Assembly: GCA_047284725.1 (NCBI GenBank)
Contig: JBJBEO010000001.1
Location: 856,203-920,202 of the forward strand
Direction of reading: 5' to 3'
DNA: 64,000 nucleotides
Origin: Synechococcus sp.
GTDB lineage: Bacteria; Cyanobacteriota; Cyanobacteriia; PCC-6307; Cyanobiaceae
The translations under genes and the position numbers were made by a program. Below, piece after piece: positions 38,215 through 61,800 of the stretch (its first letter is position 1; every line of letters starts with the position of its first letter). Under the pieces are notes generated by a model that saw only the letters and a list, made by a program, of their open reading frames with translations, was not told where the DNA came from and did not search any database.

Positions 38215-38240
38215 ACCAGGGCTGCGAGTGGCTGGCTGTG

Positions 38241-38653: not shown

Positions 38654-39172
38654 ATGGTGAGGTTTCGTTCCTTTGGACTGCCCTTGGCGCTGGGGTTGAT
38701 TCTTGGTGTGGGGGCTGGTCCTGAGGTCAGGGCTGAAACCTGGGATCGCATCGGCAGCTTTGCGGCCACGCTCCGTCGGGCGGGCACGTCCACGCTCGTG
38801 GCTCGCGATTGCCCAAGCAGTCTTCTTGGTGCTTTCCACTCCCAACGCAATGCTCTGCTGATCTGTGCCAACAATCTCCCCAATGATCCGGTGGAGATTT
38901 GGGGGGTGTTGGCCCATGAGGCCGCCCATGTGATGCAGCACTGTCGGGGCGGGCCGCTGCTCGTTGATGGCCAGCTTGAACGCGCGATCGCCCGGGTGCA
39001 GGCCAGATCGCCACAGATTTTGAAGGAGCTGAAGCTTTATCACCGCAGCCAGTATCGCGATGAAGTGGAGGCACGCCTGGTTCAGACGCTGCCTGCCGAC
39101 CAGGTGGAGGCTCTCTTCGCACGGTTCTGCGCTGATCGCCTTGCTTCCCCCTTGGAGGACCCAGCTCTCTAG
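38654..39172 (+). CDS. secreted hypothetical protein with HExxH motif
   Basis: Signal peptide, VLAHEAAHVMQ, downstream EVEA. Confidence 0.75.
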   Translation: MVRFRSFGLPLALGLILGVGAGPEVRAETWDRIGSFAATLRRAGTSTLVARDCPSSLLGAFHSQRNALLICANNLPNDPVEIWGVLAHEAAHVMQHCRGGPLLVDGQLERAIARVQARSPQILKELKLYHRSQYRDEVEARLVQTLPADQVEALFARFCADRLASPLEDPAL

Positions 39173-39247
39173 GGGAGCGACGCCTCCGTCGTCAGGCGAC
39201 TGAAGCCGCGCTTCTACCGTGTGGTGGCGAAGATCGGGCCGGCAGCC

Positions 39248-39652
39248 ATGAACACCAGTGTGCGCGGTTATTGGACCATGACCTGGTTGGGGTTGGTGGG
39301 CAATGTGCTCGCCCTGCCTCTGATCGCCTGGTTTGCCTTTTTCACCCCTGAGGCCTTCAGGGTCGCCAATGTCAGCCTGGCGTTTGCATTGGCCTGGCCC
39401 GCTGCGGTGGTGGGGATCGTGGCGTCGGCCGGGTTGTTGGCGGCGCGCCGCTGGGGCTCCGTCGTGGCGCTCGTGGCCTTGTCGATGGCCCTGGCGGCCT
39501 CTCTTCCCTACGGCATCGTGCGTTTTGCGCTGTATTGGATCGGCGGTGATGCCTGGTCGATGGGTGCCATCGCCGTCCTGTTGGCGCTCTTGAATCTGCT
39601 GGCGTTGCTGTACTGGTGCCAGCCCTCGTTGCGTCGGGGTGGGCCGCTCTAA
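39248..39652 (+). CDS. hypothetical membrane protein
   Basis: Four hydrophobic helices; ATG at 39248. Confidence 0.75.
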   Translation: MNTSVRGYWTMTWLGLVGNVLALPLIAWFAFFTPEAFRVANVSLAFALAWPAAVVGIVASAGLLAARRWGSVVALVALSMALAASLPYGIVRFALYWIGGDAWSMGAIAVLLALLNLLALLYWCQPSLRRGGPL

Positions 39653-40300
39653 ATGCCCAGTCTTGGCGGCTGTCCTTTGCTGTACAGCGATCCATGGCTG
39701 CTGGTGGTGGACAAACCGGCGGGTTTGCTCTGTCAGCCGGGTCTTGGCCCTGCACTGGCCGATTCCTTGATCAGTCGTCTGCAGCTTGAGGAGCCGGGCT
39801 TGCGCTTGATTCATCGCCTCGATCGCGACACGTCAGGTCTGCTGCTGGTGGCTCGCTGTGCTGAGGCCTTGTCGACCTTCAGCACAGCCTTCGCTCACCG
39901 CCGCATTCACAAGTTGTATGTGGCTGATGTTTGTGCTGATCCGCCTGCCCTCTCTGGTGTTGTGGATGCTCCCTTGGCGCGGTTGCAGCGCTCACCGCCC
40001 CGCTATGGGCCCCATCCCCAGGGGCGTCCCAGTCGGACGCGCTGGCGTTCCTGGGCTTGGTCCAATGGTGGCCGGCGGCTGTGGCTTCAACCCCTCACAG
40101 GTCGGTCTCATCAGTTGCGGGCCCACCTTGCTGACCTGGCTTGCCCGATTCAGGGGGATCCGATCTATGGCTGCACTGGCGAGCCCTGCGCATCGGGGCG
40201 CATGCATCTGCACGCCACAGCCCTGAGTCTGCGCCATCCCTTCAGTGGTGAACGGTTGCGATGCCGCAGTGAAGTGCCGTTTCGGCGCTTACCGGTGTGA
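39653..40300 (+). CDS. RluA family pseudouridine synthase
   Basis: DKPAGL, HRLDRDTSG, TGRSHQLRAH, GDPIYG, LHA. Confidence 0.95.
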   Translation: MPSLGGCPLLYSDPWLLVVDKPAGLLCQPGLGPALADSLISRLQLEEPGLRLIHRLDRDTSGLLLVARCAEALSTFSTAFAHRRIHKLYVADVCADPPALSGVVDAPLARLQRSPPRYGPHPQGRPSRTRWRSWAWSNGGRRLWLQPLTGRSHQLRAHLADLACPIQGDPIYGCTGEPCASGRMHLHATALSLRHPFSGERLRCRSEVPFRRLPV

Positions 40301-43474: not shown

Positions 43475-44969
<1,495 letters not shown>

Positions 44970-44973
<4 letters not shown>

Positions 44974-46469
44974 CCGATCCAAACGATCACGGAACCAGCA
45001 GCATCAATGCTGCCGACCTCACGGCAGATCAGCGGGAGGCAGCTGCTGCCTTCAGCCAATGGCTGGCCAGTGCCGAGCATGGTGTTCCCTTTGTGCTCAG
45101 CGGTTTTGCCGGCAGCGGTAAGACGTTTCTGTCGATGCGACTGCTACGCATGGTGGAGGCCACCGGCCTCTGCTGGACGGTGGTGGCTCCTACCCACAAG
45201 GCGGTGGGGGTGCTGCGTCAGGCGCTGGCCTTGGAGGGTCTGCAGCCCACCTGGTACCCCTCCACCATCCACCGGCTCCTTCGTCTCAAGCTCAAGCGCC
45301 AGGGTGATCGCGAAGTGTGCGAGCCCACCGAACAGACCGCCATGGCCCTTGAACATCTCGGGCTGGTGCTGATCGATGAGGCGTCCATGGTCGACAGCAG
45401 CTTGCTGTCGATCGCCCTGCAATGTGCCCATCCCTTCCGGACGCGGCTGGTGTTTGTGGGGGATCCGGCCCAGTTGCCGCCTGTCGGGGAAGCCGATAGC
45501 CCCGTGTTTTCCATGGATCGGGTCAGTGCTTCCTGCCTCACGGAGGTGGTGCGCCATCAGGGTCCGGTGCTGCAGCTTGCCAGCTGTCTGCGGGATGGAC
45601 GCTTGGCCTGTGAACGTCCGCCCCTGTTGCCAGCCGTCTCCACCGCGATGGGCAGCGTCGCCAGCCTTGACCGTGCCGCTTGGCTGGTGCGGGCCAAGGA
45701 GGCGTTGAAGCAGGCCTCTGTGAGCGATAACCCTGATGCCGCTCGGATTCTCTGCTGGACCAACCGCAGCCTTGAGGAGCTCGTGCCCCATGCCCGCCGG
45801 GCCATCCATGGCGTGATGGCGGATCAAATGCCGGTCCTGCCGGGGGAGGTGTTGATCACCCGCACGGCGGTGATGGCTCCGGCCTCCCGGGATGGCGGTG
45901 AAACCGGGGAGGAACCCGATCTGGTGCTGGGCTCCAACCGTGAGCTCGTGGTGGAGGATGTGAGCCCGGAACGTTGTGATCTGGCGGATTTCGGCCTCAG
46001 TGATGCGGAACTCCATGGCGGTCAACTGACCCTCGACGGCCTTGGGTCTCCGGTGATTGACACCCTCAATGCCCGTGTGCGTTGCGGAGACTTGGAACTA
46101 ACCTTGCGGATGCTTCCAGCCGTTGGCAGCGAGGCACGCCAGCAGTTGGATCGGGTGATGCAGCGGCTGCGCACCCAGGCCCGGGACGCCGGCAAGCGCA
46201 ACGGCCGTTCGCTTTGGCGGCGATTCTTTCTGCTGCGTGATGCTTTTGCCTCGCTCGGTCCAGCCGCAGTCCTTACCGTGCATCGCAGTCAGGGCAGCAG
46301 TTTCGGTGAGGTCTTTGTCGCTGATGACGTGTTCTGGCCCCAAGACCGGGCCTTGCGCCGACAACTCGTGTACGTGGCGGTGAGCCGGGCTCGCCATGGG
46401 GTTTATCTGGTGGGACGCCCATCCAACGATCCAGAAACCTGGAAGCAGGCTCTTGCTGAGACCCCCTAG
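44970..46469 (+). CDS. RecD/Dda-like SF1B helicase
   Basis: GFAGSGKT, APTHKA, IDEASMV, GDPAQLPPV, TVHRSQGS, YVAVSRA. Confidence 0.92.
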
Positions 46470-46566
46470 TCCGTCCTCAGTTGTTCGTTTCGATTCACTG
46501 TTTTGGTCAAGGGCTCGCTTGTTGTCACGTTGACTGATTGATCAGGTCTGAAGTCGCAATCGACTT

Positions 46567-46596
46567 GCCTCCTCGCTTCCTACGAGGCGAAGAGGC
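46567..46596. terminator. GC-rich hairpin between convergent genes at the island edge
   Basis: GCCTCCTCGCTTC-CTAC-GAGGCGAAGAGGC: 13-position stem with two imperfect pairs; no U-tract. Confidence 0.4.
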
Positions 46597-46651
46597 GGTC
46601 AGAGTGAAGAACGAGCCTGACGACTGAGGTGAAGAGCGTTTCTGATTCAAC

Positions 46652-47480
46652 CTACGAACGGTTGCGGTACCAATTGAAAAGCCAGTCGCTCAAACGTTTG
46701 CGTTGACCGGAGGGCAAAGATTCATTGGAGATGGCTCTTTGCTCTGGATCCTGTTCGTTGACAACTGTTGAGGGAGTGAAGGAGTTGTCGAAAAGGAGGG
46801 CTGTGTCAGGCTCGTCGTTGTTCTGTTGCTCAAAACTCAGTCCAGTTTCGAGTGTCTCATTGTGCATGGCGACCAGGTAATCATCATGGGTGTAATCGCT
46901 TTCGTCGTGATGATCAGAATCGATTTGAATTCTTGTGCCTGGGGATAATGTTTCGCTCATAACACTTGATTCATGATCGGACGTGTCATGGTCCAACCCA
47001 AGTGCATGTCCGATTTCGTGCATGAAGACAGACAGAAGATCAATTTGTTGTGCTGCTTCGCTGCCGCCGAGAGCGAGTCGTGTGCCATCTGGCTGAACCT
47101 GGTATTCACTGGAATCCAAGGGAGTGGAATCGATAAACCAGCCATGTCCTGATGCATCACGATCCATGGGGATTCGGGAGTAGGAGTAACTCGCCAAAGC
47201 CATCCCATCCCATCTAAATCGTCAACTCTGATGTCCATTGATTGGAGATCGTTGAGTTGTTGAGTGGTCATTGAATGGGATGTGGACCAGTGACGCACTG
47301 CAGCGTCGTAAACCGCTCGAATCAGATCAGGCTCTATTTCGGAGAGATCATGAACAAGGGGGGTGGTGAGGTGATGCCCCTTGTTGCCGTGCTGCCGTCA
47401 CCGTCAACCAAAGCTGAGAGTTGGCTGAATAGAAATCCTTTGTCATTGGTTCTGACTTCAAGTCGTCAAGCTTGCTACGG
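46652..47480 (-). pseudogene. frameshifted remnant of a giant-protein C-terminus (paralog of the 52804-64000 gene end)
   Basis: Pieces in different frames (DD/EVRTND; DLSEIEPDLIRAVYDAAVRHW...MDIRVDDLDG; DASGHGWFIDSTP...DLLSVFMHEIGHALGLDH) are collinear with the giant's FDNFRIRTN; GLYEVDRKLLYSTFSTAIDLW...VDLRVDDLEG; DAAGHGWFIDATP...DLLTVQLHEIGHLIGISH. Confidence 0.85.
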
Positions 47481-47550
47481 TTCCAGGCATAGAAAGAGTG
47501 CCAAATCTGTAAAACTCGTAAAAGGGGCATGCCAGTCTGGTCAACAAAGT

Positions 47551-47556
47551 TACAAT
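47551..47556 (+). promoter_or_regulatory. possible -10 element (TACAAT) for the island operon
   Basis: TACAAT about 40 nt upstream of the first ATG (47596) in an AT-rich intergenic stretch. Confidence 0.3.
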
Positions 47557-47595
47557 TGAACGGTAAAGTGTCGTTTTTGGCCTGCGAATGAAGCA

Positions 47596-48753
47596 ATGCT
47601 TGCGCAAGAGTTTTATTTTGCGACGCACTTCTCATCTCGTTACGGTTTGCAAGATCATCCTCAGCTACGAAACTCATCCTTGATGACATCACTGCCGAGT
47701 CGCAACATAGATCTCTTTTCAGCACGCGAGACGTTTTCCGATTATTTAGTTGTTGATAGGTTTTTGCGTGACTTGGTGGGCATGCGTGGCCTGAAAACGG
47801 CCTTCGACCGACAAGTTGTCGATGCACTCGTCGATGGGCCGAAATCCATGACTGAGTTGACCAATCGCTTGGGTGCTGATCAAGCAGGAGCCCAACTCCT
47901 CTTAGGCATCCTTGCCGTAAGCGACGTGGTTGAACGAATCGGCGATAAGTTCATGTTGACGTCTAGCTTCAGGCAGGCACTCCAGTTTCGCGATCTTCTG
48001 GAAGCGAAGTTGGACTTCGCCGGTTTTGTCCTTCTTGACTTCATCGATAAGTTTGACTATTTGGTGAATGATTCTTCAAGGTTCCAGGGTGAGGCTCAAC
48101 TCTTTAGATTATTTGATTACCAGAAGGCAAAGAATCCCACAGTTCAGAGCTACGCCTGGACAAAGGTTTGGATAAGGCTCACGACTTCATTGACTCGCTA
48201 CGAAGCTAAAGCTGCACTCAATATCTATGATTTTGGTAAGCACAAAAATCTGCTTGATATCGGCGGCAATAGCGGTGAGTTTGTACTTCGTATCTGCAAG
48301 GCACACGATGATATGCGTGCCACCGTGATGGATCTTCCAGTCGTCTGCGAGTTCGGTCATGATCACATCCTGGTCGAGCCAGAGCGGGAAAGAATCGGAT
48401 TTTTGGCTGGTAGTGCTCTGATCGACCCGATTCCTCAGGGTTATGACCTTATCTGTTTCAAATCCATGTTGCACGATTGGCCTGATGGAGATGTTTGCCT
48501 GTTTTTGCAGCGCGCCGCTGAGGCCTTGGATCCTGGAGGGACGCTTTTGATCTACGAACGAGCCCCTCTCGAATTCACCAAACGTTCATTGTCAATAGGG
48601 CAACTTCCCGTCTTACTTTTTTCACGCTGGTATCGCACAGAGCAATTGTACTGTGTACAACTTGAAAACCTTGGTTTTAAAGACATCAAAGTGCACTATT
48701 TGCAGCTCGACAGCCCCTTCTTCATCGTGGCAGCACAAAAACCAGAGATTTGA
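47596..48753 (+). CDS. SAM-dependent methyltransferase, Methyltransf_2 (CrtF/BchU/COMT-like) family
   Basis: N-terminal wHTH-like dimerisation region, LLDIGGNSGEF, DLPVV, FKSMLHDWPD, LDPGGTLLIYE. Alternative start ATG at 47683. Confidence 0.9.
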   Translation: MLAQEFYFATHFSSRYGLQDHPQLRNSSLMTSLPSRNIDLFSARETFSDYLVVDRFLRDLVGMRGLKTAFDRQVVDALVDGPKSMTELTNRLGADQAGAQLLLGILAVSDVVERIGDKFMLTSSFRQALQFRDLLEAKLDFAGFVLLDFIDKFDYLVNDSSRFQGEAQLFRLFDYQKAKNPTVQSYAWTKVWIRLTTSLTRYEAKAALNIYDFGKHKNLLDIGGNSGEFVLRICKAHDDMRATVMDLPVVCEFGHDHILVEPERERIGFLAGSALIDPIPQGYDLICFKSMLHDWPDGDVCLFLQRAAEALDPGGTLLIYERAPLEFTKRSLSIGQLPVLLFSRWYRTEQLYCVQLENLGFKDIKVHYLQLDSPFFIVAAQKPEI

Positions 48754-48756
48754 ATC

Positions 48757-49737
48757 ATGCATTCTTTCATAGGTCCTGAATCCTCAGTTGGTCCGAGATT
48801 TAATCCAACACGTCTGAAACATTTATTTCACTACGACGATTATGTTGAAGTGACTATGCACTTCAAGTGCAATCTGAAGTGCGTTCATTGCATGATAGAA
48901 AATACTATGGATTGGCTAGAGCCTGAAGGCCTGACTCGTCTCGAAGAAGTATGTGCCTATAACGACCAATATCGACGCTGGAGGGGAATTATCTTTACTG
49001 GTTCAGAAGTCACTCTTAATGCAGACTTGCCAAAGTGGGTAAATATGGCACGTCATCATGGTTTCGAGCGAGTGCGGATCCAGACCAACGGTATTCGATT
49101 GTCTGACTACGCATATTGCCGAGAGTTAATTGATGGCGGTGTCAATGAATTCTTCATAAGTGTCACAGCGGCCGATGCCGAAACCCATGATTCGATTACG
49201 AAAGTCAAGGGGTCGTTTGAAAAGACAATTCGTGGTTTGCATAATCTCGATTCATTCAATGATGTTGTCTCGATCACAAATACTGTCGTTACCACTCTCT
49301 CCTTCACACACTTGCCAATACTTGTGCGAGAACTTGGACACCTGAAGAACCTGGCTCGTATGGACTTCTGGAATTTCTGGCCGATGAATGAAAATGACGA
49401 CAAGGATCTGATTGCTTCTCATCTGGATGTCTTGCCATGCCTTCGAGACGCCATCGCAGAGGCACACAAGCTCGGTCGAGCCGTCGAAGTTAAGAACTTT
49501 CCCGAATGTTTGCTTGCTGATGATGGTCAATCATTAGATAATGGACAGCCAAAGCTTGTGATTGATCCAGCCTTCTGGCCTGAGTTTATGCGTAATGGAT
49601 TCAATCAGTGTGTCTTTCGTGACCAGTGTGGTTCTGTTAAATGTCTAGGTTTGAATACCGCTTATGTGAAGAAGTACGGATGGCACGAAGATGTTTTGGT
49701 GCCATTGCCTGTTCTGGAGTCCTTCGACAATGCATGA
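48757..49737 (+). CDS. radical SAM enzyme with Cys-containing C-terminal extension
   Basis: CNLKCVHC (CX3CX2C), FTGSEVT, IQTNG, FPECL, C-x5-C-x4-C-LG...YG. Confidence 0.92.
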   Translation: MHSFIGPESSVGPRFNPTRLKHLFHYDDYVEVTMHFKCNLKCVHCMIENTMDWLEPEGLTRLEEVCAYNDQYRRWRGIIFTGSEVTLNADLPKWVNMARHHGFERVRIQTNGIRLSDYAYCRELIDGGVNEFFISVTAADAETHDSITKVKGSFEKTIRGLHNLDSFNDVVSITNTVVTTLSFTHLPILVRELGHLKNLARMDFWNFWPMNENDDKDLIASHLDVLPCLRDAIAEAHKLGRAVEVKNFPECLLADDGQSLDNGQPKLVIDPAFWPEFMRNGFNQCVFRDQCGSVKCLGLNTAYVKKYGWHEDVLVPLPVLESFDNA

Positions 49738-50923
49738 ATCCTCTTCGATAAATGCTGATGCCGTTCGGATCTTTATTGAAGCAGACGGCATTGTGCTTGA
49801 GCTCGGGCACAAAGTAACCCCAGATGGAAGTGAATCTGATGTGATTAAAGGCCTATCTCGTATAAAGCTCACTCCACAGACCTTTCGTCGTTTTGGACTG
49901 GCATTGCATGATGCAATAAGTCTGTTGCCCAAAGAGTCTGTTCTTCGTTCTGGATCGATTCCGACTCCAACGCCACAACGCTCTTCCGCTGCAAAAGCCT
50001 CGCTGGAAGAGTTGCTTGATCCCACCATCAACCTTTCCTCATCCTCAGCGCCGACACCGATTTCAAGCCAGGATGCACAGCGGGTGTTCAAGCTGATTGC
50101 CAGTCTCGGTGCACCTTATGTCCATGAGCGCTCTTTTCGGTTCCGTGAAGGAGAGTTATTGCCCAATCGATTCCTGCTGACTGTTGGACGCTCAGGCAAC
50201 GGCAGCACTTCCGATGATGCTTTGATGGACCTATTCACTAACCTTTCCCTTCCTGCACCATTCCTCGAAGCTGCCCGCCAGCACATTTCGGCGGCCCGCT
50301 GTATACATGTTGGCTTTGAGGGAGACGGCGACAGTCCGCTGCTGAAGGTCTATTTGGAGATTGGAGGTCCTGACCAAATTAATCAGTCAACGCCTGATGC
50401 CGCAGTCCTTGAGCACATTGCGTACAAGTGGGACGTAAGAAACAGGGAACGACGAACCGTTGCTCGTTACTGGTGGTATCCATACCTAAATGCCAGTGAA
50501 TTGAAGAAACGAGTTGTTGAATTGTATGCAGATCATGATTTAGAGGCTCAGGATATTGCCCTTGGTGCCATTGAAATGGCAGCGCAAAAGATGCCTGAAC
50601 GTGACATTCACTACCTTGAGGTCGAAGAAGAGGGCAACCCAAGGCGTTCTTACTCGATCAATTTTTATGATGCGGGACTTCAGGTCCGGGATTTGCATAC
50701 ATTGCTGGCACGCATGAGAAACTATTTTGATGTATCGCCAGGGAAGTTTCAGATGCTCTATGACCAGATTAAGACAAGGCGTTTGGGACACATCGCTGGA
50801 GGAATTCACCGCAATGGAAAAGGCTTTTTTAATGTCTACTATGGTCCTCAGTTCATGGATTACGATTGTCAGGGCCATTGGCGCAGTGCTGTGTTTAGGG
50901 GCAAAGACAACTGCGATTTCTGA
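49730..50923 (+). CDS. DUF3467-like domain fused to a predicted ABBA-fold (LynF/PagF-like) prenyltransferase-like domain
   Basis: ATG at 49730 overlaps the radical SAM stop. The N-terminal domain aligns without gaps to the 52488-52781 protein. A Pro/Ser/Thr linker is followed by ERSFRFREGELLPNRFLL and five predicted beta-hairpins. The ORF is solid; the function is inferred. Confidence 0.65.
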   Translation: MHESSSINADAVRIFIEADGIVLELGHKVTPDGSESDVIKGLSRIKLTPQTFRRFGLALHDAISLLPKESVLRSGSIPTPTPQRSSAAKASLEELLDPTINLSSSSAPTPISSQDAQRVFKLIASLGAPYVHERSFRFREGELLPNRFLLTVGRSGNGSTSDDALMDLFTNLSLPAPFLEAARQHISAARCIHVGFEGDGDSPLLKVYLEIGGPDQINQSTPDAAVLEHIAYKWDVRNRERRTVARYWWYPYLNASELKKRVVELYADHDLEAQDIALGAIEMAAQKMPERDIHYLEVEEEGNPRRSYSINFYDAGLQVRDLHTLLARMRNYFDVSPGKFQMLYDQIKTRRLGHIAGGIHRNGKGFFNVYYGPQFMDYDCQGHWRSAVFRGKDNCDF

Positions 50924-50925
50924 CT

Positions 50926-51795
50926 ATGCATATCAACGACCGCTTCGAATATATCACTGAGAAAGATTTATATCATAATTATTGCCTCTGGCCCTACCTG
51001 CCAGTTACTGCTTCCATCGACAAGTTTCGCTCTATCAATCTTCTCTATCACGCTTTTGACGTTGCAGAAATCGATCACCGTATTTTTGATTTTGTCGAGG
51101 CGATACGTGATGGCATTGGCAGCTTCCGCACGGTGTGGGGAACTAAACTCATTAACAATAATTTGGCATGGGAATTTTACTTCTATGACTATGGGAGGCG
51201 TGTACGCGAGCTTTCGATCAGCAGGTTGATCAAGATTTTGGCGCCATTCACGCACTGCTCCGTTTCAGTCAACGAAAATATCAATTATTTTATGTTTTCG
51301 TTTGATGTCGATCAAGAGCTGATTACAGGTGCTCGTCAGCTTGATATTGTTCACATGTATCTCGGTAATGCTGGAAGCACTGTCTCCTCAGGAATTTCCT
51401 ACGCCCTGAGCCAGCAGTCATCCCGCCTCGAGAATCTGTATTACTTCTTCGAAGTGCCGTCCATGTTGCAACAGGTGATGGACAAGGTTGGTGACTCGGC
51501 CTACGTCGATGAAGCAGCGATTCCTATGGATTTTTTGGTGTGGCCGGAGCTTCGATCATGCACCACTATCTGTGTGGCCAACAAACAGAGCAATGACACA
51601 ATTTACTTTTCTGGGTGCACTGTAGATCAGCTTTTGTACTTTCTGATTCGGATTGGGTATCCAAGTAAGATCATTGACTTTGTGCAGTCTAATCGCAATA
51701 ATCTTGACCATCTTCTTTACGACGTGGGTTATGATTACCGCACGAAGGGTGATAAGGTTGAGATCGTCAAGAGTGGCTATTACGGGATATTTTGA
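50926..51795 (+). CDS. aromatic-rich hypothetical protein, possible second PT-barrel (ABBA) fold
   Basis: 289 aa, 2-nt gap to the previous gene; five helix/beta-hairpin units ending YDVGYDY...KSGYYGIF. The ORF is solid; the fold is inferred. Confidence 0.6.
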   Translation: MHINDRFEYITEKDLYHNYCLWPYLPVTASIDKFRSINLLYHAFDVAEIDHRIFDFVEAIRDGIGSFRTVWGTKLINNNLAWEFYFYDYGRRVRELSISRLIKILAPFTHCSVSVNENINYFMFSFDVDQELITGARQLDIVHMYLGNAGSTVSSGISYALSQQSSRLENLYYFFEVPSMLQQVMDKVGDSAYVDEAAIPMDFLVWPELRSCTTICVANKQSNDTIYFSGCTVDQLLYFLIRIGYPSKIIDFVQSNRNNLDHLLYDVGYDYRTKGDKVEIVKSGYYGIF

Positions 51796-52418
51796 ATCAA
51801 TCCTATTCGACAAGAATAGTCGTGGCTGTTTCTGCACCGGTTGGTGGTGGTAAAACCTCTCTGGTGCGTGGTCTGGCGCAGGCTATGGATGGTGTTCCTT
51901 TTCATTTCGATCACTACGAAGACCTGACTCAATTGCCGCTTGAAGAAGTGAAGGCATGGCTCCATTTCGGTGCCGAGATTGCAGACCTTTCGATTCCCGC
52001 ACTGACGGATGACCTGATGGATCTGAAGCATGCCAGCTCACCGGCCGTACCCGCCAGTGGAGTGGCCATTCAAACCGCTCAATTTGTCTTTTTTGAGACC
52101 CCGTTTGCCCGGTGCCACCTTGAGTTAGATAATCTCATTGACTTAGCGATCTGGATTGACACACCTCTCGACGTCGCTTTGGCCCGCAACATACGGGAGT
52201 TCATGCGGCAACCTGAGTTGAGATCGAAATTGTCTGCGTGGCTTCCTGACTACCTTGATGGCTATCTCGACGCAGTGCGTGACATGCTGTTGATGCAGCA
52301 GGAGACTGTTGGTCGTGCAGCAGATATCACCCTTGATGGGACAGCCGATCTAGCGACAAACTTATCCATCGCAGAAAGAGAGATACGCAGGCTTCTGAAA
52401 AACAGATCATGCGACTGA
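51792..52418 (+). CDS. P-loop kinase, uridine/nucleoside kinase-like
   Basis: TTGA start-stop overlap; VAVSAPVGGGKTS Walker A, FDHY, FFETPF, IWIDTPLDVALAR. Confidence 0.85.
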   Translation: MNQSYSTRIVVAVSAPVGGGKTSLVRGLAQAMDGVPFHFDHYEDLTQLPLEEVKAWLHFGAEIADLSIPALTDDLMDLKHASSPAVPASGVAIQTAQFVFFETPFARCHLELDNLIDLAIWIDTPLDVALARNIREFMRQPELRSKLSAWLPDYLDGYLDAVRDMLLMQQETVGRAADITLDGTADLATNLSIAEREIRRLLKNRSCD

Positions 52419-52487
52419 TATTTGACTCCTATTGGACAGTGTCTTCTTTCTGAATCAATGTGGGCAAAGCCTATGGCTCCGGTTCCT

Positions 52488-52781
52488 TTAACCTTTGAAT
52501 GCGCCGTAACGCTTGACATGCTCTGACAATACGGTTTGGCTGACCTTGGCTAGTTCCTTGGCGACAGATGGGGTTAGGTGAATTCGATCGGTGAGCTTAG
52601 CTTGCCACTCACCCTCAGTTAATCCGGGCTCAGTGCGTCCAAATAGCAAGGTTATATCCTCACCAGAGCACGACACATTGCAGACATCTGCGAAGGACGT
52701 TGACAGGTTCTTGTCGTCCCAGGGGGCTTTACGGCTCTGGCTAGAAAGTTGCATGCTCGCAGAGGAATTAGGGGGGGTCAT
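52488..52781 (-). CDS. DUF3467-like small protein
   Basis: WDDKNLSTSFADVCNV...ITLLFG...LTDRIHLTPSVAKEL...KRYG; starts 22 nt after the giant gene's stop on the same strand. Confidence 0.8.
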   Translation of the reverse strand: MTPPNSSASMQLSSQSRKAPWDDKNLSTSFADVCNVSCSGEDITLLFGRTEPGLTEGEWQAKLTDRIHLTPSVAKELAKVSQTVLSEHVKRYGAFKG

Positions 52782-52803
52782 GAGAAGTTAATGGTAGTAA
52801 TAA

Positions 52804-55800
52804 TCACTTCCGGCGAAAGAGGCCTAACAATGGATCCAAGAGCTCCTGCCCCCAGCCGAGAACGTGAAGCCTCCTTCTTGCCTCTGGGGCCGTAGGAATG
52901 TGATTTTTAATTCTCGCCTCTTTTAACGTGTTATCTGGACTCCTCCTGTCAGAGGTGACCTCGGCAGTAGTCAGTGTTGAAGTTTCCAGCTCAACATCTT
53001 GAACATCGATCGTGTCAAGGAGTCTGCGCTGCTCTGCGCTGAGTCGACGCTTCTGCTCCCAAATTGCAATCGCAGCAGCGCGTGTGTTCTCCAGAATCTG
53101 TGGCTGGATGTTTGGCAGCGATTTGCTCCCGTCCCCAGATTCAGTTAGCCTGTCTGCATCAGGATTCACGCTGGCGATGAGGTTTTCCTCATGCATCTCA
53201 GGCAGATGGCGCACACCAGCTTCCAGCATCTGTTCCATGAGCCCCTTCTCCTCATGGGATATACCGATAAGGTGTCCGATCTCGTGGAGCTGCACAGTTA
53301 AGAGATCCATTTGGTCGTAGGCGGACGATTCACTTGCCGCAACATAGAAGCCTTCGTCAATTTCTTCGAACTCCTCATTGACATTAGGAGTTGCATCAAT
53401 GAACCAGCCATGACCGGCCGCATCGAAATCGAGCGTGATGGTGTTGCCCTCAGCTGTTGCAAGGATGGAACCTTCAAGATCGTCCACACGTAGATCCACC
53501 GAATCAAGGAAGGTGAGTTGGGATTCAGATAGCTGGGCGGACTGATCCCAAAGATCGATGGCTGTTGAGAAGGTGCTGTAAAGCAGCTTGCGGTCCACCT
53601 CATATAGTCCTTCGCTGTTGGTTTCTGCTCCGGTAACTCCTGCTCTCGAGTCGGGGGTACCACCGGCAAGAATGTTTTCGGAGTCTTGATGGGCCAAGTT
53701 GGGAGTATTCGTTCTAATGCGGAAGTTATCGAAAATACTGCTCCCGCCCAGGGTCATAAGGCCTACCTCACCGTCTACGACTATGCCGTTGTAGTTGTAG
53801 CCGATGACCGCATTGCCGTTTACGTTGACACTCACGGATCGGCCTTTGAGCGACACTTCGAGGTCATACTCGGTCAGCTCGTTTAGAGTCCATGCCGCCG
53901 AGGCGTCGTGGATTATTCCGGAATCCCTGTAGTGACCAATGACCACCTGGTCGGCGTCTTCATCCAGGATGGCGAACTTGAAGTCATCTTCCTTGTAGTA
54001 GTCGAATACCACTCCACCGAAGGATTTGACTTTGAGATCAGTCCAGATGTTGAGGTACGAATCGTAGGCAATGTTCAAGCCGATGGTCGACAGTGCCACG
54101 TTGTCGCCAATTGCTGTGGCTTCGTACTTCTCGGTTTGCGAGTTGACCGTCCACGTGTCTTTTTGGACCACGAAGTCATCGGCGATGCCGTCGGAAAAGT
54201 CTTCGGTCTCATCGTAGGTGTAATCCGGAGGCAAAACCTTGACGAAGACATCGTCAATGCGGGCCTTGGAGTCATAAGAGCCGATACCTATTAGTCCGTT
54301 ATTGAGGTTGTACTGGAAACCATCATCATCGATACGTGGCTCGTAAACGTGGGTGAAGATATCCTTGCCATCAATTACTAACGATGCCGTTAAGCCGTTG
54401 ATTGACAGAAGCACGCTGTAGTCCTTGTTGGGCCTGAGCTTGGCATTCGTCTGTTTGATCTCGTGCCAGCCGCTCGCATCGCGATAGCCCATTTCCAACT
54501 TGTCGTTGGAAATGTTGACCCCGGCCCACTTGAAGTCTGTTGGGTTCTGGTAGTCGAAGACGATGTAGCTGTTCGCTTTCGAGCCGCCGATGGGCTTGGC
54601 GGCGTTGATCGTCGCCTCGATTTCGTAGTAGATCGGCAGGTACTCGTCGAGGTAGTAAACAGCAACGGCATCCCCGCCGGGCGTAGCTGGTGCCACCTCG
54701 AGACGGCCCTGATTGACGTTGAAGACTCCGCTGTCGACCAGGAATCGCTCATTGGTGCCATTGTTGAAGTCGGCACCTCGCAGCACGTCGCGGCTGCCGC
54801 CAGGGATGTTGCCTGGCTGCGGATCCTGAGGAGCACCTGTCTGTTCTTGCCATAGAGCATTGTCTTTCTGGGTGGTCAGCCCCAGTTCTCCGTTGGGCTC
54901 CCCATTGCGATCGGGGTTGTTGAACGTGTCTGCCGCGCGCGTCTGATCGGCGCCTTGGCTCTCCGAAAGGTCATAGAGGAAGTCGAACAGCGCTGGCGTG
55001 ACTTGACGACTCACAGTACCAAGGCCGAATGCCGCGAACGGCACCAAATAGCTGTTGTACTCGCCGACCCAGTCAATCAGACGGTCGCCACCTGTATTGG
55101 CGATGAGCACATCCATCCCCGCGCCACCGAAGGCTCGATCCTCCCAGAAAGGATGGGTCTCCGGCTGGTCGTTGAGCTCACCGTTGGTGCCCAAGACATC
55201 GTCGGCGTTGAGCACGTCATTGCCCCAGCCACCGTAGATGCTGTCAGTTCCCGTACCTCCGACCAGCCAATCGTTGCCAAGGTCACCAAAAAGTACGTCA
55301 GCGCCATCGTCGAATGCGGTTCCGTACTCCAGATGTTGCTGTAATTTCGCACCTGTGTCTTTGTCGTCGAAGTTCAGGAACCACTCGAAGCCGTCGGTGG
55401 TTTTGTTGAGCGAGCCGTCAACGTTAAGCTCGATCTTGCGCAGTGGATCGAACTCGTCGTAAACCGCGAACTCTCCGTCGCGCTCACTTGAAAAGCGCAG
55501 TGCGTCCCCTGGGTTGAACGGTCTTGCCCAGTCGCTGCGCTGGATGGTGATGATGCCGTTGCCATCGTCGACCTGCGTGTAAGCCAGGGTCAGCGCCTCG
55601 GCTCCCGACATCGCGTCATCACCCGAGCCGCCGTGCAGGAAGTCGGCCTGAAGGCCGCCGAAGATGATGTCGTTGTAATTGTCCGAGGCGTCCCAGAGCT
55701 GATTGTCGAAGCCTTGGGTGATCGGGTTCACGTTGAACGGCGTCAGGTTGACGCTCTTCTTCAGCGCACCGGACACGTTGATCGTAGCCTGTTGCGCCTG

Positions 55801-58800
55801 GCCCGGCGTAGAAATTTCGAGGTCGAGGTTGCCCGCATCGATGGCGTCGATGCCGAAGAACGACTCGCCCGTCGAGGCATTGCGGCTGGTGTAGATACGT
55901 CCGTCATCACCGATCACGCCGTCCTGGCCAGTGCCACCGGAGATCCAGTCGTTGCCGTAGCCACCGATCAGGTCGTCGTCGTCGGCATCACCGAAAAGCA
56001 CGTCGTTGCCGACCATGCCGTAGATGAAGTCGTCACCCGACTCACCGTGGATCTCGTCGCCGGCGCCGATGTCGCTCTCCTGGCTGGCAGGGTCGTGATC
56101 GATGCCGCCCTGGGTGTAGTCGACCAGGTCGACGGCGCGAACGACGATGCGCTCGCTGCCGCGATTCTCGGAACTCGAGGACTGGTCGTAGGTAAACGCG
56201 AGCATCGCACCGCTGGAGTCGACCAGGCGGTAGATATTGGCGTTGTCACCGGCGATGGCATCGGAGTCGCGCCCGTGGCGTTCCTCGAACACCAGGTCGA
56301 CCGCCTGATCCTCGACGGTGTACTCGTTGCGATTGATGCGCGTCGCCGCGCCGCCGAAGATCAGGTCCGCCGCGTCCGGACGATCCGTCGGATCGACCAA
56401 GCCGAACAGAATCGAGCTGCCGCCGATGATGTCGTCCTGGCCAAGGTTGCCGAAGATGACATCGGAGCCGCCGTTGCCCTCGATGTAGTCGTCACCGTCG
56501 TCGACGCCCTCTATCGAGGCGTTGACTACCAGCAGACCGTCACTGTCGCGGTACGCACCGACCGTCGTCTGGGCGACGTTGCCGGCGTCGAGTTCGATGA
56601 ACGAGTCACCCTGTATGGTGTCGTCACCGAGCTGACCGAAGATTTCGTCATCGTCAGCGCCACCCGCGATGTAGTCGTCACCGAAGCTGCCGGCGAACGG
56701 AGTATCGGAGTGGTCGAGCAGGACGATGTCGCGTGCCGTATCTCCGCTCGGGTCGAGCTCCGCCGCACCGGCGATCAGCGCCTTTCCGTCGGTGCCACCG
56801 ACGATGTCCTCGCCGTAGATGGTGCTGCCCTGCAGCTGGCGGAAGCGTTTGCGCAACGAATCGCCGCGACGAACGATGGTCGCGTTGTCACCGGCGATGG
56901 CGTCGTTTCCGGCGCCGCCGTCGATGAAGTCGCCCGCGTCCTGGCCATTGGCGACGTTGTGCCCCCCGATGATGTCATCATCGCCGTTGTTGCCGAAGAT
57001 TGTGTCGCTACCCTGCTGACCAAGGATAATGTCGTCGCCGGCATCGCCGGTGATGAAGTCCGCGTCGCCGAGCAGGTCGTCGAGAGGGAACCACACGCTG
57101 CTTCCGAGAGTTTCGGTCTCGATGGCGGTGAAGGTGAATGGCGGAGTCATCGTCGCTTGCGGCAGGGACGCCGGATCCAGCACACCTCCGAGCGTCTGCT
57201 CGATGCGGCCGTTGTCGCCGAAGATGAGGTCCTCACCGTCGTTACCCGAGATGGTGTCGCGACCGGCGCCACCGAGGACGATGTCATTGCCCTCGTCACC
57301 GGCAATTCTGTCGTCGTCGGGACGTGTGATGAACGTCTGAATACGATCGACCGCGGCGTCGGCGTCAAGAGCTAGGTCCATGGTGCCGTGATCGCCGAAG
57401 ATCAGGTCGTTGCCGGTGTTGCCGTGGATGTCATCACCGCCGGTCCCACCAAAGATCAGGTCGTCGCCGGCATCACCGAAGATGAAGTCGCCCGCGCCGT
57501 TGTCGGGGATGGTGCTGGTGATGAAAGTCACCTGCTCCGTTGTGCGGATGCGCTCCGTACCCGGCTGCAGGTCGATACGACCGTGGTCGCCGAAGATGAT
57601 GTCGCCATCATCTCCGCCGTGGATGGTGTCCGAACCGGTCGCCATGTCGTCGCGGCTACGCGAGTCGGCTGTGTCGACGTCGACTACGCTCAGCCACAGC
57701 GTGGTGCCGTCGCGGTGCGGCAGGTCAACGTTGAAGCCGGAGTCGCCGTAAATGTGGTCGGTGCCTTTCTGGCCGAAGATCTCGTCGTTACCGGAACCGC
57801 CGGCGATGTGGTCACCGTCCATGCTGCCGAAGATGGTGTCGTCGCCACCACCACCGAAGATGGTGATGCCGCCGGTGAACTCAAAGGTGCCGTCTTGCTC
57901 GTCGGTGTCGACGCTGGAGATACCGCTCCAGGCCGACGCATCGATGATGTCGTTGCCGGTGCGATCGAAGGCGATGGCGTTGCTGGTGATGCCGGTGACC
58001 ATCGTGATGGTGGCGTCGACGCCGAGTTCTTCGACCGTCAGGCCGCCTGTCAGCGTTAATGTTGTCGCGGTGACGTCTGCGATCTCGTAAGCGCCGTCGT
58101 TGGCGATGCTGCCCTCGATCTCCACCGGGCGACCGACAACGTAGCCGTCGTCAAGCCAGCTGCCGCCGTCGTTGCGGCTGATGGAGCCCGCAGCACCCAG
58201 ATCGACGTTGGCCTCCACTTTGATCGGCGCCGAAGGCACCGAGTCGTAGCGGCTTCCATCTTGCGAAGTGTCGCCGTAGACCACCAGCACGCCGGTGGCC
58301 TTATTAATTACAATTGAATCGCCGCCGACGATGGCTTCGCCTGTATCTGAGACGACCTTGGTCAAGGTCCCGCGGATGGTCTCGGTGGTAAGTGCTCCAA
58401 CTACAGTGATAACGTCGCCATTGATGTCCGCGATCTCATAGGTCGCATTGTTGTCGTCGGTGTCGGTGACCTTGATTGTGTCGCCGACCTCGAAGCCCTC
58501 ATCGATCCAAGAGGTGCCGTCAACGCGGGTGATATCGCTGCCGTCGAAACCGAGGTCGTTGTTGACCTCGAAGATGCTATTACCACCACCGTGAATTACG
58601 GTGACGAGTCGTTCCGCCGCGCCCACCGTGCCGTGGCTGGTGTCGTCGACCTGGAAGTTGTCGTTGCCGACACCCAGCATGATCTCTGTCACCTCGATGT
58701 CGTCGAAGGTGATACCACCCTCGAAGGTCACCAGCTCGCTGCCATCCTGCGCGATGCTGATGTCGAAGGTAGTGGTCGGCCCCATGCCCAACCCCTCGAG

Positions 58801-61800
58801 ATTGGTCGGGTTGTCGAGAACGATGATCGGGTTGTTGTCCAGCGTCGTCGAGTGCAGGCGACCCGAATCGTCGGCGAAACTGTTGTCGTTGTAGACATTT
58901 AGCGTGTCAGTCTTGGTGGTCTCGTCGGTGTCATCGACGAAGACGTTGGGCTCGGTGGTCGACTCGGTCGGCAAGACGACAGCCTTCGACAGCGACCGGT
59001 CGCGACCCAGCGCGACACCACCCTCGATGACCACCGGACCTTCGATGGTGTTGAGGCGGTGCTGACCGAGGGTCGGGGCGCGCTCGACATCCTGTCCTGC
59101 CGTGGCCTTGAAATCGGGGTTCTGATCGATCACGACAGTCTGTTCTTGGAACCAGTCGGTGTCGGTGAACACCATTTCCGTGGTCAGTTCACCCGTCGCG
59201 ATATTGCCGAGCAACGAGAGGATCGACTGGCCGTCGGAGAACGCGCTCACCGTGACATCGGTGTCCGGCTGGCTCAGTAGGCGCACCGTGTAGGTGTCGG
59301 TGCCGGCGCCCACGACATTGTCCTCGATGACCAGCGTGCTGCCGTTGGACTGCTGTACCAGAATCCCTGGGGTGTCGTCGTCGAGTACGCGGATGCGCAG
59401 CTCGTTGGCATCGGCGTCGACATACACGCTGTCGCCCTCGTTAGCCGTGCCCTCGAACGAGCTGGTCAACAAGTGGTCGATACGGACTGATTCCGGGTTC
59501 TCCTCGGTAGCGTCGTCGCTGGCCTTCACGAACACCGTCTGCTTCACGTCGAAGGTGCTGGCGTCGAAGGTGAGTGCACTGAGCGTCGTGGTGAAGGTCG
59601 CGTCGGTGTAGAACTCCACCTCAGCGTTGCTTTCGATGTTCACTGTGACGATCTCACCGGCCTCAGGCGCCACCGCAAGGCGCACGTCGTAGGTATCGGT
59701 GATCGCACCGGCGCCGACTACCCCTTCGAGAACAAGTGTGCCGCCGTCGGTCTCGTCGATAATGACGCTGCCGAGATCGTCGTCGCGTACCAGCACGACG
59801 GCATTCTTGATTTTGGCGCCGTTGTACGGCTCGTCGGCGCTGTGAATCATGTGGCTGACCATGACGTTGCGGTCGCCCTCGATGACGTCGTCACCGATGG
59901 CGCGGACGAAGACTTCTTGGTCGCTGTCCCAGTCGACGCCCGCGGTAAAGGTCAGAACCACGGCTTCGAAGAAGTTGACGCCATCGGTCGAGACCAGCAC
60001 GGTGCCGGCGTCGCGGCTGCCACCGTCGCGTTTCGGCAGTCGCCTGTCGTGCGAGGACGAGGACGCCGCCGACACCGTGATGTAGACCTCGGTGCCGTCA
60101 GTCACGTCGGCGTCGGCGACCGACAGACCAACCATGTAGGAGTCCTCGTTGTCGACGCTGTCCTCGGTGACGACAATTTCGCCGTCAATGTTGTCGATAA
60201 CCACCAGGCCGAGCGTCGGGGTGGCGACGTTGAACGGCACGCCCTCGATCAGCAGGCCGTCGTAGTCGGCGTCGCCGCTCATCGAGGCGTGGTTGATGGC
60301 CGCGCTGCGACCCTCGAGGTCCTGGCTCACCACGCGCTCGGTGACGTCGCCGCTGATGTTGAACGTATCCGAACCCAGACCGCCGATGATGGTGGTGACC
60401 GCGTTGGCGCGCGTGCCGAGTACGAAGAAGGTGTCGTCGCCCTCGAGTCCATCGACCTCGACTGCTTCCTCGACGCCATCAAGGCGAATGTTCAGGCCAG
60501 CTCCGAAGATGCCGTCCGGTGTGATGATGAAGGCATCGTCGGCCTCCGTTCCTATTGCCACCACCGTATCGAAGCCGTCACCACCGTTGATGCTCACTGG
60601 CGCGTTGACGTTGTACTCGATCTGGTCTTCGCCGTCGCCGGAGTTGACCTCGATCTCGCCATCGGCCACGAAGGCGCGTACCACGAACAGGTCGTTGCCC
60701 GACTCACCCTCCATGCGCAGCTCGGCCTTATTGGAAAAGACGTTGAACTCGTCCTGGCCCTCGCCACCCTGCAGCACCGCCGCTTCACTGATGCCGAAGC
60801 TCAGCCAGTTGTCGTTGGTGATGCCAGTTAAGCGGATCTCGTCGGAGTCCGAGGTCAGGTCGATGCCTTCCTCCCACGGAGCCGTTCCCGGCACCGCGAT
60901 CGGCACCGAACCGAACACCTGGCCGACCTGGAACATGTCGTCGCCCTCGCCGGCGTCGATAGTCATAACTGTGCTGGTGTCGTCGATGTAGAACTCGTCG
61001 TCCGCGTTGCCGGAGAGGATCTCCAGACGGCCGTTCGTGGTGCCGTCGTAGTTAATACGCTCGACTTCCGGATTTAGCACCGTGGCATCGTCGCTGACCG
61101 GGTTGAGCCACGCCACGAAGTGCTCGCGAATGAGGAAGTAGTCCTTGCCGTCAGCATTGTTGGCGTCTCCGATTTCTGTACCGACGATGGTGAGCTTGTC
61201 GGCACCGTCGTTCTCGGCGCCCGTATCGTGAACGTTGATCAGGTACTCGGTGCGGCCACCCGTGACGTTGATAACGACGCGGTCGGTCTCGGCACCGCCG
61301 TCGATGTCTAAAGTGTCACGAACTTGTTTGTTGCCCACGGGCACACCGTTGACCAGCTTGTCATCATCGAACTGCCGATCGTGGCGCGTGGTCATCCTCG
61401 TCATGTGATCGACGGTGATGAGGTCTTCACCCTCCTGGCCGAATACCTGGGTATGTCCGATGATGCCGGCTTCGGTGGTACCACCTTCCGGACGAATCTC
61501 GATCTCGTCGTCGTCGGCCTCCCCGAGGATGTCGATACGCTGGGCATACGTCTTGCCCTCAAGTATTATTAGTGCCCCGACGCCTGTGTCGTCGTCAAGA
61601 TAATCACCTTCGATCCGTATATAATCGGTCGCATTGATCAGGCTAGTGGCGGCTAGGTGCAGGTTGTCGCCGGCGCGCAGGAAAATGCCGTTTGAGTCGA
61701 TCGGCAACTGGGTCGCCAGCTGCGTCGGGATGACGTCGGCCGCCAGGACGGTACTGTTGGTCGAGACCAGTAAGTCGTCCCCCGCGGTGAGCGTGACGTC

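Follow-up and report, generated by a model that had tools for sequence, protein, structure and literature searches.

A conserved gene module with a radical SAM enzyme and a predicted ABBA-barrel protein is linked to genes of giant secreted proteins

A 64,000-nt stretch of DNA from Synechococcus sp. (the whole of which is hereafter called the window, and whose numbering is used for all module coordinates) contains a compact group of five co-oriented genes, which encode a methyltransferase (MT), a radical S-adenosylmethionine (SAM) enzyme (rSAM), two proteins of unnamed families (P3 and P4) and a kinase-like protein (KIN), and which converge on a DUF3467 gene that follows a gene for a giant RTX protein. 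Here we report that this module is conserved across phyla, that natural fusions join some of its proteins, that P4 is predicted to fold as an ABBA (PT) barrel, that rSAM carries the motifs for its cofactors, and that the module is genetically linked to giant-protein genes. We consider the chances about even that it is an undescribed tailoring system for giant secreted proteins or for a protein partner of these. The original prediction had left two options, namely that the module tailors the giant protein or partners of it post-translationally, or that it synthesises a small methylated or prenylated metabolite co-inherited with the giant protein; we favour the former, with the giant protein as the presumed substrate. 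In many bacteria, adhesion, motility, predation and resistance to grazing are shaped by giant secreted proteins, whose maturation is largely unexplained. Two papers (PMC2441476, PMC9387257) describe genes for such proteins in genomic islands of marine picocyanobacteria.

The five genes are MT (47596-48753, + strand), a class I SAM methyltransferase of the Methyltransf_2 type (COMT/ASMT-like) with an N-terminal dimerisation/winged helix-turn-helix region; rSAM (48757-49737, +); P3 (49730-50923, +), in which a DUF3467-like N-domain (aa ~1-75) is followed by a Pro/Ser-rich linker and a C-domain (aa ~112-397); P4 (50926-51795, +), a highly conserved protein of 289 aa with a predicted ten-stranded barrel; and KIN (51792-52418, +), which starts with TTG and resembles P-loop kinases (uridine kinase/PRK08233-like). 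The open reading frame (ORF) listing of the window reproduces the spacings of the original prediction (+3, -8, +2 and -4 nt), and such spacings point to translational coupling of the five genes. The start of P3 was set at 49730 because its homologs begin there, a longer alternative ORF starting at 49691; homologs of MT align from residue ~49, so that its true start may be an internal Met. On the opposite strand lies a stand-alone DUF3467 gene (52488-52781, -; 97 aa, PF11950), on which the module converges as had been described before; it starts 22 nt past the stop of the giant ORF (52804-63999, -), which runs past the window edge and encodes more than 3731 aa; its product contains RTX repeats and, at the C-terminal end, a metzincin domain. 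Also in line with the earlier reading, the ORF listing and a Pfam scan revealed no transporter, nonribosomal peptide synthetase (NRPS), polyketide synthase (PKS) or precursor gene within 46.5-52.8 kb. A terminator and promoter scan found nothing exceeding shuffled sequences. The arrangement of the module recurs across phyla and is far from chance.

To describe this recurrence, contigs from one genome per species were used, which gave 397 pattern matches; a relative of P4 is encoded by 115 of these, and 80 loci were retained (numbered here with the prefix L). Core genes were counted by local tblastn and hidden Markov models (HMMs), also in the subset of 42 loci in which P4 is flanked by 4 kb or more on either side, while counts of neighbouring gene families are lower bounds, antisense ORFs having displaced real genes in the crude ORF calling at high-GC loci. 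The 80 loci span alpha-, beta-, gamma- and deltaproteobacterial lineages, Planctomycetota, Nostocales, Acidobacteriota, Rokubacteria, Methylomirabilia, Verrucomicrobia and others. Both rSAM and the P3 C-domain are present in 68 of the 80 loci and in 41 of the 42 well-flanked ones, MT in 59 and 35, and KIN in 22 and 13, respectively; MT, rSAM, P3 and P4 occur together in 51/80 loci and in 35/42 of the well-flanked set. The core therefore consists of rSAM, P3 and P4, with MT as a frequent and KIN as an optional member. The co-occurrence expected by the original prediction was thus found, and its five-gene system stands as regards this core and the usual MT but not as regards the kinase (13/42). 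The module is accompanied by DUF3467 domains in 56/80 loci and by giant secreted-protein genes in 39/80. Two gene orders prevail: MT-rSAM-P3-P4(-KIN), with rSAM ~59-71% identical to that of the window, and P3-rSAM-P4-MT, with ~33-41% identity. The core proteins rSAM, P3 and P4 probably work together, and the longer relatives of P4 are fusions without exception (43/43), namely 31 P3~P4, 11 rSAM~P4 and one DUF3467~P3~P4 protein.

Neither Pfam nor NCBIfam contains a model that matches P4. Among 1706 candidates, 1289 are relatives of P4 at E<=1e-3, and the best 120 of these 1289, which are 53-100% identical, all bear the name 'hypothetical protein'. An alignment of 24 sequences has 76 invariant columns. 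The AlphaFold2 model (predicted local distance difference test score, pLDDT, 89.8; predicted template modelling score, pTM, 0.89) consists of ten strands, and a Foldseek search of the PDB gave 82 matches at E<=1e-3; among the matches listed, all are ABBA prenyltransferases. KgpF (E 3.5e-6), AmbP1, LimF, PirF and DciF lead, PagF follows lower, and AmbP3, FamD1, EpzP and FgaPT2 are likewise included, with TM scores of 0.39-0.53 and identities of 6-13%. Model and matches agree, and P4 is accordingly predicted to be a ten-stranded antiparallel ABBA (PT) barrel, as its description as PT-barrel-like had anticipated. Invariant residues comprise K33, R35, K74, R91, R94, K187, K220, R257 and K282 as well as many Tyr, and the invariant Lys, Arg and Tyr are located on strands. 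The barrels of P4 and P3 would be transferases that use a prenyl diphosphate donor.

The second barrel is less certain. P3 matches no Pfam or NCBIfam family, and profile searches of PDB sequences with its C-domain came back empty. Its N-terminal ~75 residues, by contrast, align with the DUF3467 profile (hhalign 96%, E 3e-9), which bears out their earlier description as DUF3467-like, and PF11950 is matched by 9 of 23 P3 homologs. For the C-domain, which had been called PT-barrel-like as well, language-model (Atlas) features give a score of 0.96 to a cluster of 289-aa proteins with 11% PTase_Orf2 members, 0.90 to an aromatic-prenyltransferase cluster (41% PTase_Orf2) and 0.87 to a cluster with 14% Trp_DMAT, but hhalign finds no profile relation to P4 (0.3%). 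The feature scores thus speak for the barrel and the profiles do not, and we treat the C-domain as possibly an ABBA barrel, a lead from language-model features. Some P3 proteins hold two C-domains. Several P3 homologs of ~370 aa (P0163, P0166, P0175 and others) carry the name 'tryptophan halogenase' in Joint Genome Institute (JGI) annotations; no halogenase domain was found in P3, and the name is probably an annotation artefact carried over from neighbouring or fused genes.

The stand-alone DUF3467 protein of the window scores 47.1 bits against PF11950 (cut-off 25). Its AlphaFold2 model (pLDDT 77.5) comprises three strands and one long helix, for which a Foldseek search of the PDB returned nothing significant; the best match was PC4/Sub1 (E 0.18), and SecB was absent among the matches listed. 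Sequence and profile searches of the PDB with DUF3467, P3 and P4 gave matches at chance level only. According to an HMM scan of 81 loci, the domain is fused to P3 in 52 and stands alone in 32; the stand-alone gene is present in two copies in four loci and comes first in the operon in alpha- and betaproteobacterial loci, and one ORF (in L043) joins MT and DUF3467. A Trp in an 'RWD' motif is conserved in stand-alone proteins as well as in deltaproteobacterial-type fusions with an enzyme. Its conservation in the fused copies argues against DUF3467 as a substrate and says nothing about a role as adaptor. DUF3467 proteins have short and variable tails with few aromatic residues, which, together with the Trp kept in the fusions, fits an adaptor better than a precursor. 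We therefore regard DUF3467 as a presumed docking or recognition domain. A complex prediction that paired the DUF3467 alignment (L047 first) with residues 26-70 of the giant tail had a score of 0.00 against a mark of 0.32, and favours neither binding nor non-binding.

rSAM belongs to the Radical SAM superfamily (PF04055, E 1.4e-17, 64.8 bits vs. a cut-off of 29.5). Its CxxxCxxC motif (C38, C42, C45) and four C-terminal Cys (C251, C285, C291, C296) are invariant in 64 of 64 homologs from the loci, which upholds the radical SAM gene with a Cys-rich C-terminus of the original prediction; the four C-terminal Cys are likely to bind one auxiliary Fe-S cluster. The best NCBIfam models are HxsC4 (E 2e-29, 102.6 bits vs. 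a cut-off of 500) and HxsC (E 3e-16); all NCBIfam scores are under the family cut-offs, and there is no SPASM match in Pfam. In the PDB, lipid and nucleoside enzymes come closest in sequence, and only through the radical SAM core. Pfam identifies MT as Methyltransf_2 (E 6e-23), as had been stated before, and adds a sub-threshold dimerisation domain; the nearest solved relatives are the small-molecule O-/S-methyltransferases Plu4895, DsyB, MmcR and DnrK and a hydroxyindole O-methyltransferase. KIN, described earlier as a P-loop kinase, is closest to uridine kinase/PRK08233-like proteins (NCBIfam E 4e-25, under cut-off; a uridine kinase in the PDB, E 8e-4).

The giant protein of the window displays seven RTX stretches and a Peptidase_M10-like domain according to Pfam (aa 3470-3593, 53221-53592, -) with an intact HEIGHLIGISH motif; its N-terminus lies beyond the window. 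The last ~870 aa are 37-50% identical to module-adjacent giants in nine loci. Crude ORF clustering and a motif scan identified giant or LEPR-type ORFs in 39/80 loci, and in 22 of the 33 with at least 8 kb on either side. They fall into a class with RTX and M10 domains like that of the window (23 loci) and a class without Pfam match (12 loci), and wherever the N-terminus is visible, both begin with basic residues and then a LEPRLLLSAD-type motif (LEPR-XLL). In 17 loci, a pattern search found this motif ahead of ORFs that are 150 aa or longer, it is legible by eye in L058 as well, and the NCBIfam model NF012209 (LEPR-XLL) matches L029. Giant ORFs with a LEPR start were seen in L003, L012, L016, L019-L021, L024, L027-L029, L031, L037, L058 and L080; in alpha- and betaproteobacterial giants a conserved S-Y usually comes after the motif.

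The linkage takes a recurrent form. Frequently, the 3' end of the giant gene is found 40-170 nt ahead of DUF3467, P3, rSAM or MT on the same strand (e.g. L007, L017, L025, L043, L046, L047, L063), and the order giant-then-DUF3467 of the window is repeated in L047, L060 and L070. A plasmid of the cultured Pontibrevibacter nitratireducens ALG8 (L081, NZ_CP049813.1 6928-20572) encodes in a row an HlyD-like protein, an M50 protease, a 3926-aa protein, a P4-like protein (38% identical) and an rSAM (53%), and no P3, MT or DUF3467. Its giant protein possesses a signal peptide and an outer-membrane-type C-terminus. This plasmid represents a minimal version of the module in a culturable strain and a convenient experimental system. 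In an alignment of eleven giant tails, including that of the window (52807-52881, -), a single residue is invariant, a Trp (codon 52852-52854 in the window) in the context W-x-x-[DE]-[FL]-[LV], usually followed by P-N-x-x-I-x-[ILV]. This Trp might, speculatively, serve as a recognition or modification site; it is a candidate only, since the plasmid giant lacks it, and for the same reason the site would not be universal. A contig labelled as uncultured Bifidobacterium sp. (L002) carries the module with a giant RTX/M10 gene, HlyD, an M50 fusion and a SecA paralog, a Gram-negative-style set, and the taxonomic label of this metagenome-assembled contig is doubtful.

Composition ties the two parts of the locus together in the window. 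From ~46.5 to ~54.5 kb, the GC content drops to 0.44-0.53, compared with 0.60-0.66 in the flanks (composition profiles). This low-GC block (46500-54500) has sharp edges and spans the module, the DUF3467 gene and, of the giant gene, only the final ~570 codons with the metzincin domain and the tail; its right edge falls inside the giant ORF. Within the latter, GC was seen to climb from ~0.50 to ~0.60 between 54000 and 55000. The C-terminal ~570 codons seem to be of a different origin than the rest of the giant gene, perhaps by domain replacement through recombination. At the left edge lies a frameshifted remnant of a metzincin (M10-like) C-terminal domain (46652-47346, -); blastx aligns it in two frames (41% and 30% identity) with aa 3465-3597 of the giant protein, to which it is homologous. 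Its HExxHxxGxxH motif is still legible, and its 183-aa ORF matches Peptidase_M10 (E 2.9e-9); this ORF also ends in a Trp-rich tail that resembles the tail motif of the giant protein. The closest relative of P4 (82% identical) is encoded on a short contig, the best locus from a species representative belongs to Acidobacteriota (67%), and the copies of Nostocales are 54-55% identical. Given the GC block, the remnant at its edge and these identities of P4, the C-terminal domain of the giant protein, DUF3467 and the module would have been acquired horizontally as one cassette.

Several accessory genes accompany the module elsewhere. In 15/80 loci there is an M50 protease that carries PqqD and HlyD domains as a fusion; its best NCBIfam model is a daptide intramembrane protease (E 1e-45), and both this match and that of its PqqD domain (E 7e-4) are under the cut-offs. 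A SecA paralog and a GAF-HlyD protein occur in 15 loci each, HlyD in nine and OEP in five, and 20/80 loci have at least one of the GAF-HlyD, M50 fusion and SecA paralog genes. Apart from an HlyD-like gene at 3982-5157, the sole one there, the window contains none of these accessory families nor the further enzymes named below, and its 46-64 kb region has no ABC exporter or HlyC-like gene. Export-type sets beside module and giant were noticed, for example, at L046:12567-20846, L054:6053-14426, L076:12697-20000 and L049:2105-8598. Taken together, the DUF3467/GAF-HlyD/M50-PqqD-HlyD/SecA paralog/HlyD/OEP set gives the impression of a route dedicated to the processing and export of giants. Further enzymes vary among loci. 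B12-radical SAM enzymes are found in 11 loci, genes like WelO5-family iron/2-oxoglutarate halogenases in 11/80 (L004, L005, L013, L014, L017, L018, L020, L037, L038, L039, L045) and flavin tryptophan halogenase genes in 4/80 (L018, L036, L038, L051); these halogenase-type genes lie close to the module and are scattered over several phyla. A loose hint at an indole or Trp substrate comes from these halogenases together with the indole prenyltransferases that P4 matches in fold. Genes of 370-417 aa that resemble MiaB/RimO-family methylthiotransferases directly follow P4 in L035, L043, L065, L066 and L075. For five MiaB/RimO-like proteins (from L035, L043, L065 and L066), the match ends at model position ~360 of 429, there is no TRAM region, and scores remain under all family cut-offs.

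If these components act together on a protein, the most likely course would be the following. The catalytic core would be a complex of rSAM, with its auxiliary cluster, and the two barrel proteins P3 and P4, usually joined by the COMT-like MT and sometimes by the P-loop kinase. DUF3467, free or fused to P3 and occasionally MT, would dock or recognise the substrate, as RiPP recognition element (RRE) domains do for the enzymes of ribosomally synthesised and post-translationally modified peptides (RiPPs). The giant protein or a partner would be covalently tailored in the cytoplasm ahead of export: P4 and P3 may move a prenyl-type alkyl group onto an aromatic or nucleophilic side chain, and radical SAM chemistry and methylation may come after this transfer. 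In a more far-reaching version, which we hold to be unlikely in its entirety, giants are matured like oversized RiPPs, with DUF3467 as a new recognition domain guiding the ABBA/rSAM complex, a prenyl-derived methylated mark (in some lineages halogenated or methylthiolated) being placed at a candidate site such as the tail Trp, and subsequent export along a hitherto unrecognised route by the M50-PqqD-HlyD protein, the SecA paralog and an outer-membrane factor.

A number of observations weigh against a tailoring system for giant proteins. None of the 24 P4 members matches the prenyltransferase models (PTase_Orf2, Trp_DMAT, cyanobactin PT) at E<=1, a P4 profile search of PDB sequences yields nothing, and the structural similarity to prenyltransferases is moderate (the TM range given above); likewise, the P3 C-domain and P4 are unrelated by profile. 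The nearest solved relatives of MT are all small-molecule enzymes, and KIN is nucleoside-kinase-like. Characterised members of the WelO5 family act on free alkaloids, and genes of this family accompany the module in the 11 loci listed. Moreover, 24/81 loci are devoid of any DUF3467 domain (mainly Planctomycetota, Nostocales and short contigs), 11/33 full-flank loci have no giant gene within 10 kb, and in the plasmid giant of P. nitratireducens both the LEPR N-terminus and the Trp tail are missing.

Some of these points favour a small-molecule pathway, in which the module makes a prenylated, methylated and sometimes halogenated aromatic or indole metabolite, or a modified isoprenoid lipid, that is needed by the giant protein or its export or is merely co-inherited with them, DUF3467 acting as a scaffold. 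This alternative is serious, since MT, the WelO5-type genes and KIN have small-molecule relatives and a third of the well-flanked loci are without a giant gene, and we judge it rather unlikely overall. Besides the COMT/ASMT-like affinity of MT, the nucleoside-kinase-like KIN and the two kinds of halogenase genes, it is favoured by the fact that many of the ABBA enzymes matched by P4 (AmbP1/3, FamD1, EpzP, FgaPT2) act on free aromatics, and that no precursor peptide was found. However, DUF3467-type domains fused to P3 in 52/81 loci, and once to MT, are unusual in small-molecule enzymes, and the operon-like position right behind giant genes persists across phyla. In addition, no PKS, NRPS, terpene synthase or isonitrile synthase is among the recurrent neighbour families, and in the window the module seems to have been co-transferred with the C-terminal part of the giant gene alone. 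A RiPP-like pathway, for which we see little probability, would start from a precursor that is either DUF3467 itself or a short peptide not recognised so far, cleaved by the M50-PqqD protein and exported by HlyD/OEP/SecA-like proteins, the giant being co-exported or unrelated. Stand-alone DUF3467 genes, their doubling in four loci and their leading position in alpha- and betaproteobacterial operons are compatible with this, as are the RiPP-type protease and export genes and the differing sets of tailoring enzymes (B12-rSAM, TRAM-less methylthiotransferases, halogenases). Against it, what is conserved in DUF3467 is a folded domain, its tails being short, variable and aromatic-poor; the domain is fused with its conserved Trp to the enzyme P3, and is missing altogether from 24/81 loci. 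The window contains no short precursor gene, nor a PqqD-like RRE with a leader protease. A BLAST comparison of small ORFs with known genes masked found none that recurs in more than two of 81 loci, although very short hypervariable peptides would be missed by it.

Two further explanations are still less probable. That the module and the giant genes have no functional tie and just share variable genomic islands appears very improbable to us. It is true that both lie in or at a low-GC island in the window and that 41/80 loci, many on short contigs, have no giant gene. Yet the same-strand, short-gap order of giant gene and module is found in distant phyla, it involves at least three unrelated giant architectures (RTX/M10, the LEPR-start class without Pfam match, and autotransporter-like), and the compositional boundary cuts through the giant gene rather than running beside it. 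Nucleotide or nucleic-acid chemistry (viperin-like, tRNA-type modification or anti-phage), in which a radical SAM enzyme would act beside a nucleoside kinase and DUF3467 as a PC4-like nucleic-acid binder, is to our mind extremely improbable. The similarity of the rSAM core to pVip models (PADLOC, E 9e-11), the uridine-kinase-like KIN, the weak fold matches of DUF3467 to the single-stranded DNA binders PC4/Sub1 (E 0.18) and the MiaB/RimO-family genes beside P4 in five loci could be read in this way. Nevertheless, the match to viperin_w_prok reaches 35 bits where the cut-off is 180 and is weaker than those to HxsC4 and MoaA, and PADLOC gave no other significant match and none for P3, P4, KIN or DUF3467. 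The DUF3467 fold matches are not significant, the MiaB-like proteins are without the TRAM region and under all family cut-offs, KIN is missing from 29 of the 42 good loci, and the linkage to giant genes would be left unexplained. A reading of the module as a defence system was rejected, as the PADLOC similarity to viperins is confined to the generic radical SAM core.

The rest of the window comprises housekeeping genes and, among others, the cyanobacterium-typical CAAD, DUF3370, DUF1400, lycopene cyclase and GH57, a content that suggests a high-GC cyanobacterium. Close to the island but not within it, at 43502-46469 and with normal GC, there are genes for a polyprenyl synthetase, a DUF212 (PAP2-like) protein and a RecD-like superfamily 1 helicase; the polyprenyl synthetase could supply prenyl donors, yet it resembles the core genome. 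Between 36000 and 40000 the AT skew is strongly negative (-0.18 to -0.25), and two adjacent ORFs on the - strand (37486-38532 and 38546-39814) have no Pfam match.

Should the tie to giant proteins hold, it would provide a function for two unnamed families, P4 (at least 1289 sequence clusters) and P3, and for DUF3467. An ABBA barrel acting with a radical SAM enzyme would be a new pairing in post-translational chemistry, and in the oversized-RiPP version a full-size bacterial protein would, for the first time, be prenylated by an ABBA-type enzyme, which would also mean a new principle for anchoring or activating giant adhesins. New biocatalysts and a lead to an unrecognised export route are among the possible yields.

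Searches of Pfam, NCBIfam, PADLOC, PDB sequences and the full-text literature revealed no described pathway that matches the module, in line with the original prediction, which had recognised none. In the full-text literature, DUF3467 appeared only in an unrelated context and LEPR-XLL was only mentioned in passing; nothing was found that joins giant proteins, radical SAM, prenyltransferase and secretion, that describes ABBA-radical SAM RiPP fusions, or that combines SecA, PqqD, HlyD and radical SAM. Among characterised systems, the dedicated enzyme HlyC/CyaC, encoded beside an RTX toxin in hlyCABD-like operons, lipidates the toxin before type 1 secretion; HlyC is a Lys acyltransferase that uses acyl-acyl carrier protein. 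The module resembles such systems in that the gene of a secreted RTX-repeat protein lies beside enzyme genes. It differs from them in the nature of its enzymes (ABBA-fold, radical SAM, methyltransferase) and in having no ABC exporter in the window. RRE (PqqD-like) domains are free or fused to RiPP maturases, and DUF3467 likewise stands alone (32/81) or is fused to P3 (52/81) and once to MT; it differs in its predicted structure of three strands and one helix, which has no significant PDB match, while a true PqqD domain is located in the M50 fusion. With its CxxxCxxC motif and four invariant C-terminal Cys, a number sufficient for one cluster, rSAM may resemble the HxsC/HxsC4 and SPASM/twitch peptide maturases with auxiliary clusters, but with 102.6 bits it is far from the HxsC4 cut-off of 500 and it matches no SPASM model of Pfam.

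An ABBA prenyltransferase, WelO5 and a methyltransferase constitute the enzyme logic of the hapalindole and welwitindolinone pathways. The indole-alkaloid prenyltransferases AmbP1, AmbP3 and FamD1 have a fold like that predicted for P4, and WelO5-family and methyltransferase genes are also found near the module; its loci, by contrast, show no isonitrile synthase or cyclase, and instead a DUF3467 fusion, a radical SAM partner and a linkage to giants. The cyanobactin F-family prenyltransferases PagF, KgpF, LimF, PirF and DciF lead the Foldseek list of P4 (E 3.5e-6 to 2e-4), but P4 is only 9-13% identical to them and does not match their family model, it is paired with P3 and is in nature fused to a radical SAM enzyme, and the module has giants as neighbours instead of short precursors and contains no cyanobactin protease or precursor. 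According to a 2026 review (PMC13290415), F-family enzymes attach alkyl groups to Tyr, Trp, His or Arg in ribosomal peptides, and peptide and protein prenyltransferases are sorted there into three classes (eukaryotic, cyanobactin and trans-IDS-like), with NctPC as a further ABBA peptide prenyltransferase of low similarity. A bacterial case of post-translational Trp prenylation of a ribosomal product is ComQ/ComX, of the trans-IDS-like type (PMC5331326, PMC13290415). ComQ-type enzymes have an isoprenoid-synthase fold and act on short pheromone peptides, in contrast to the predicted ABBA barrel of P4. The enzyme superfamilies are already known; new, as far as the above searches go, are the P3 and P4 families, the fusion of rSAM with a barrel protein, the presumed use of DUF3467 and the link to giant proteins.

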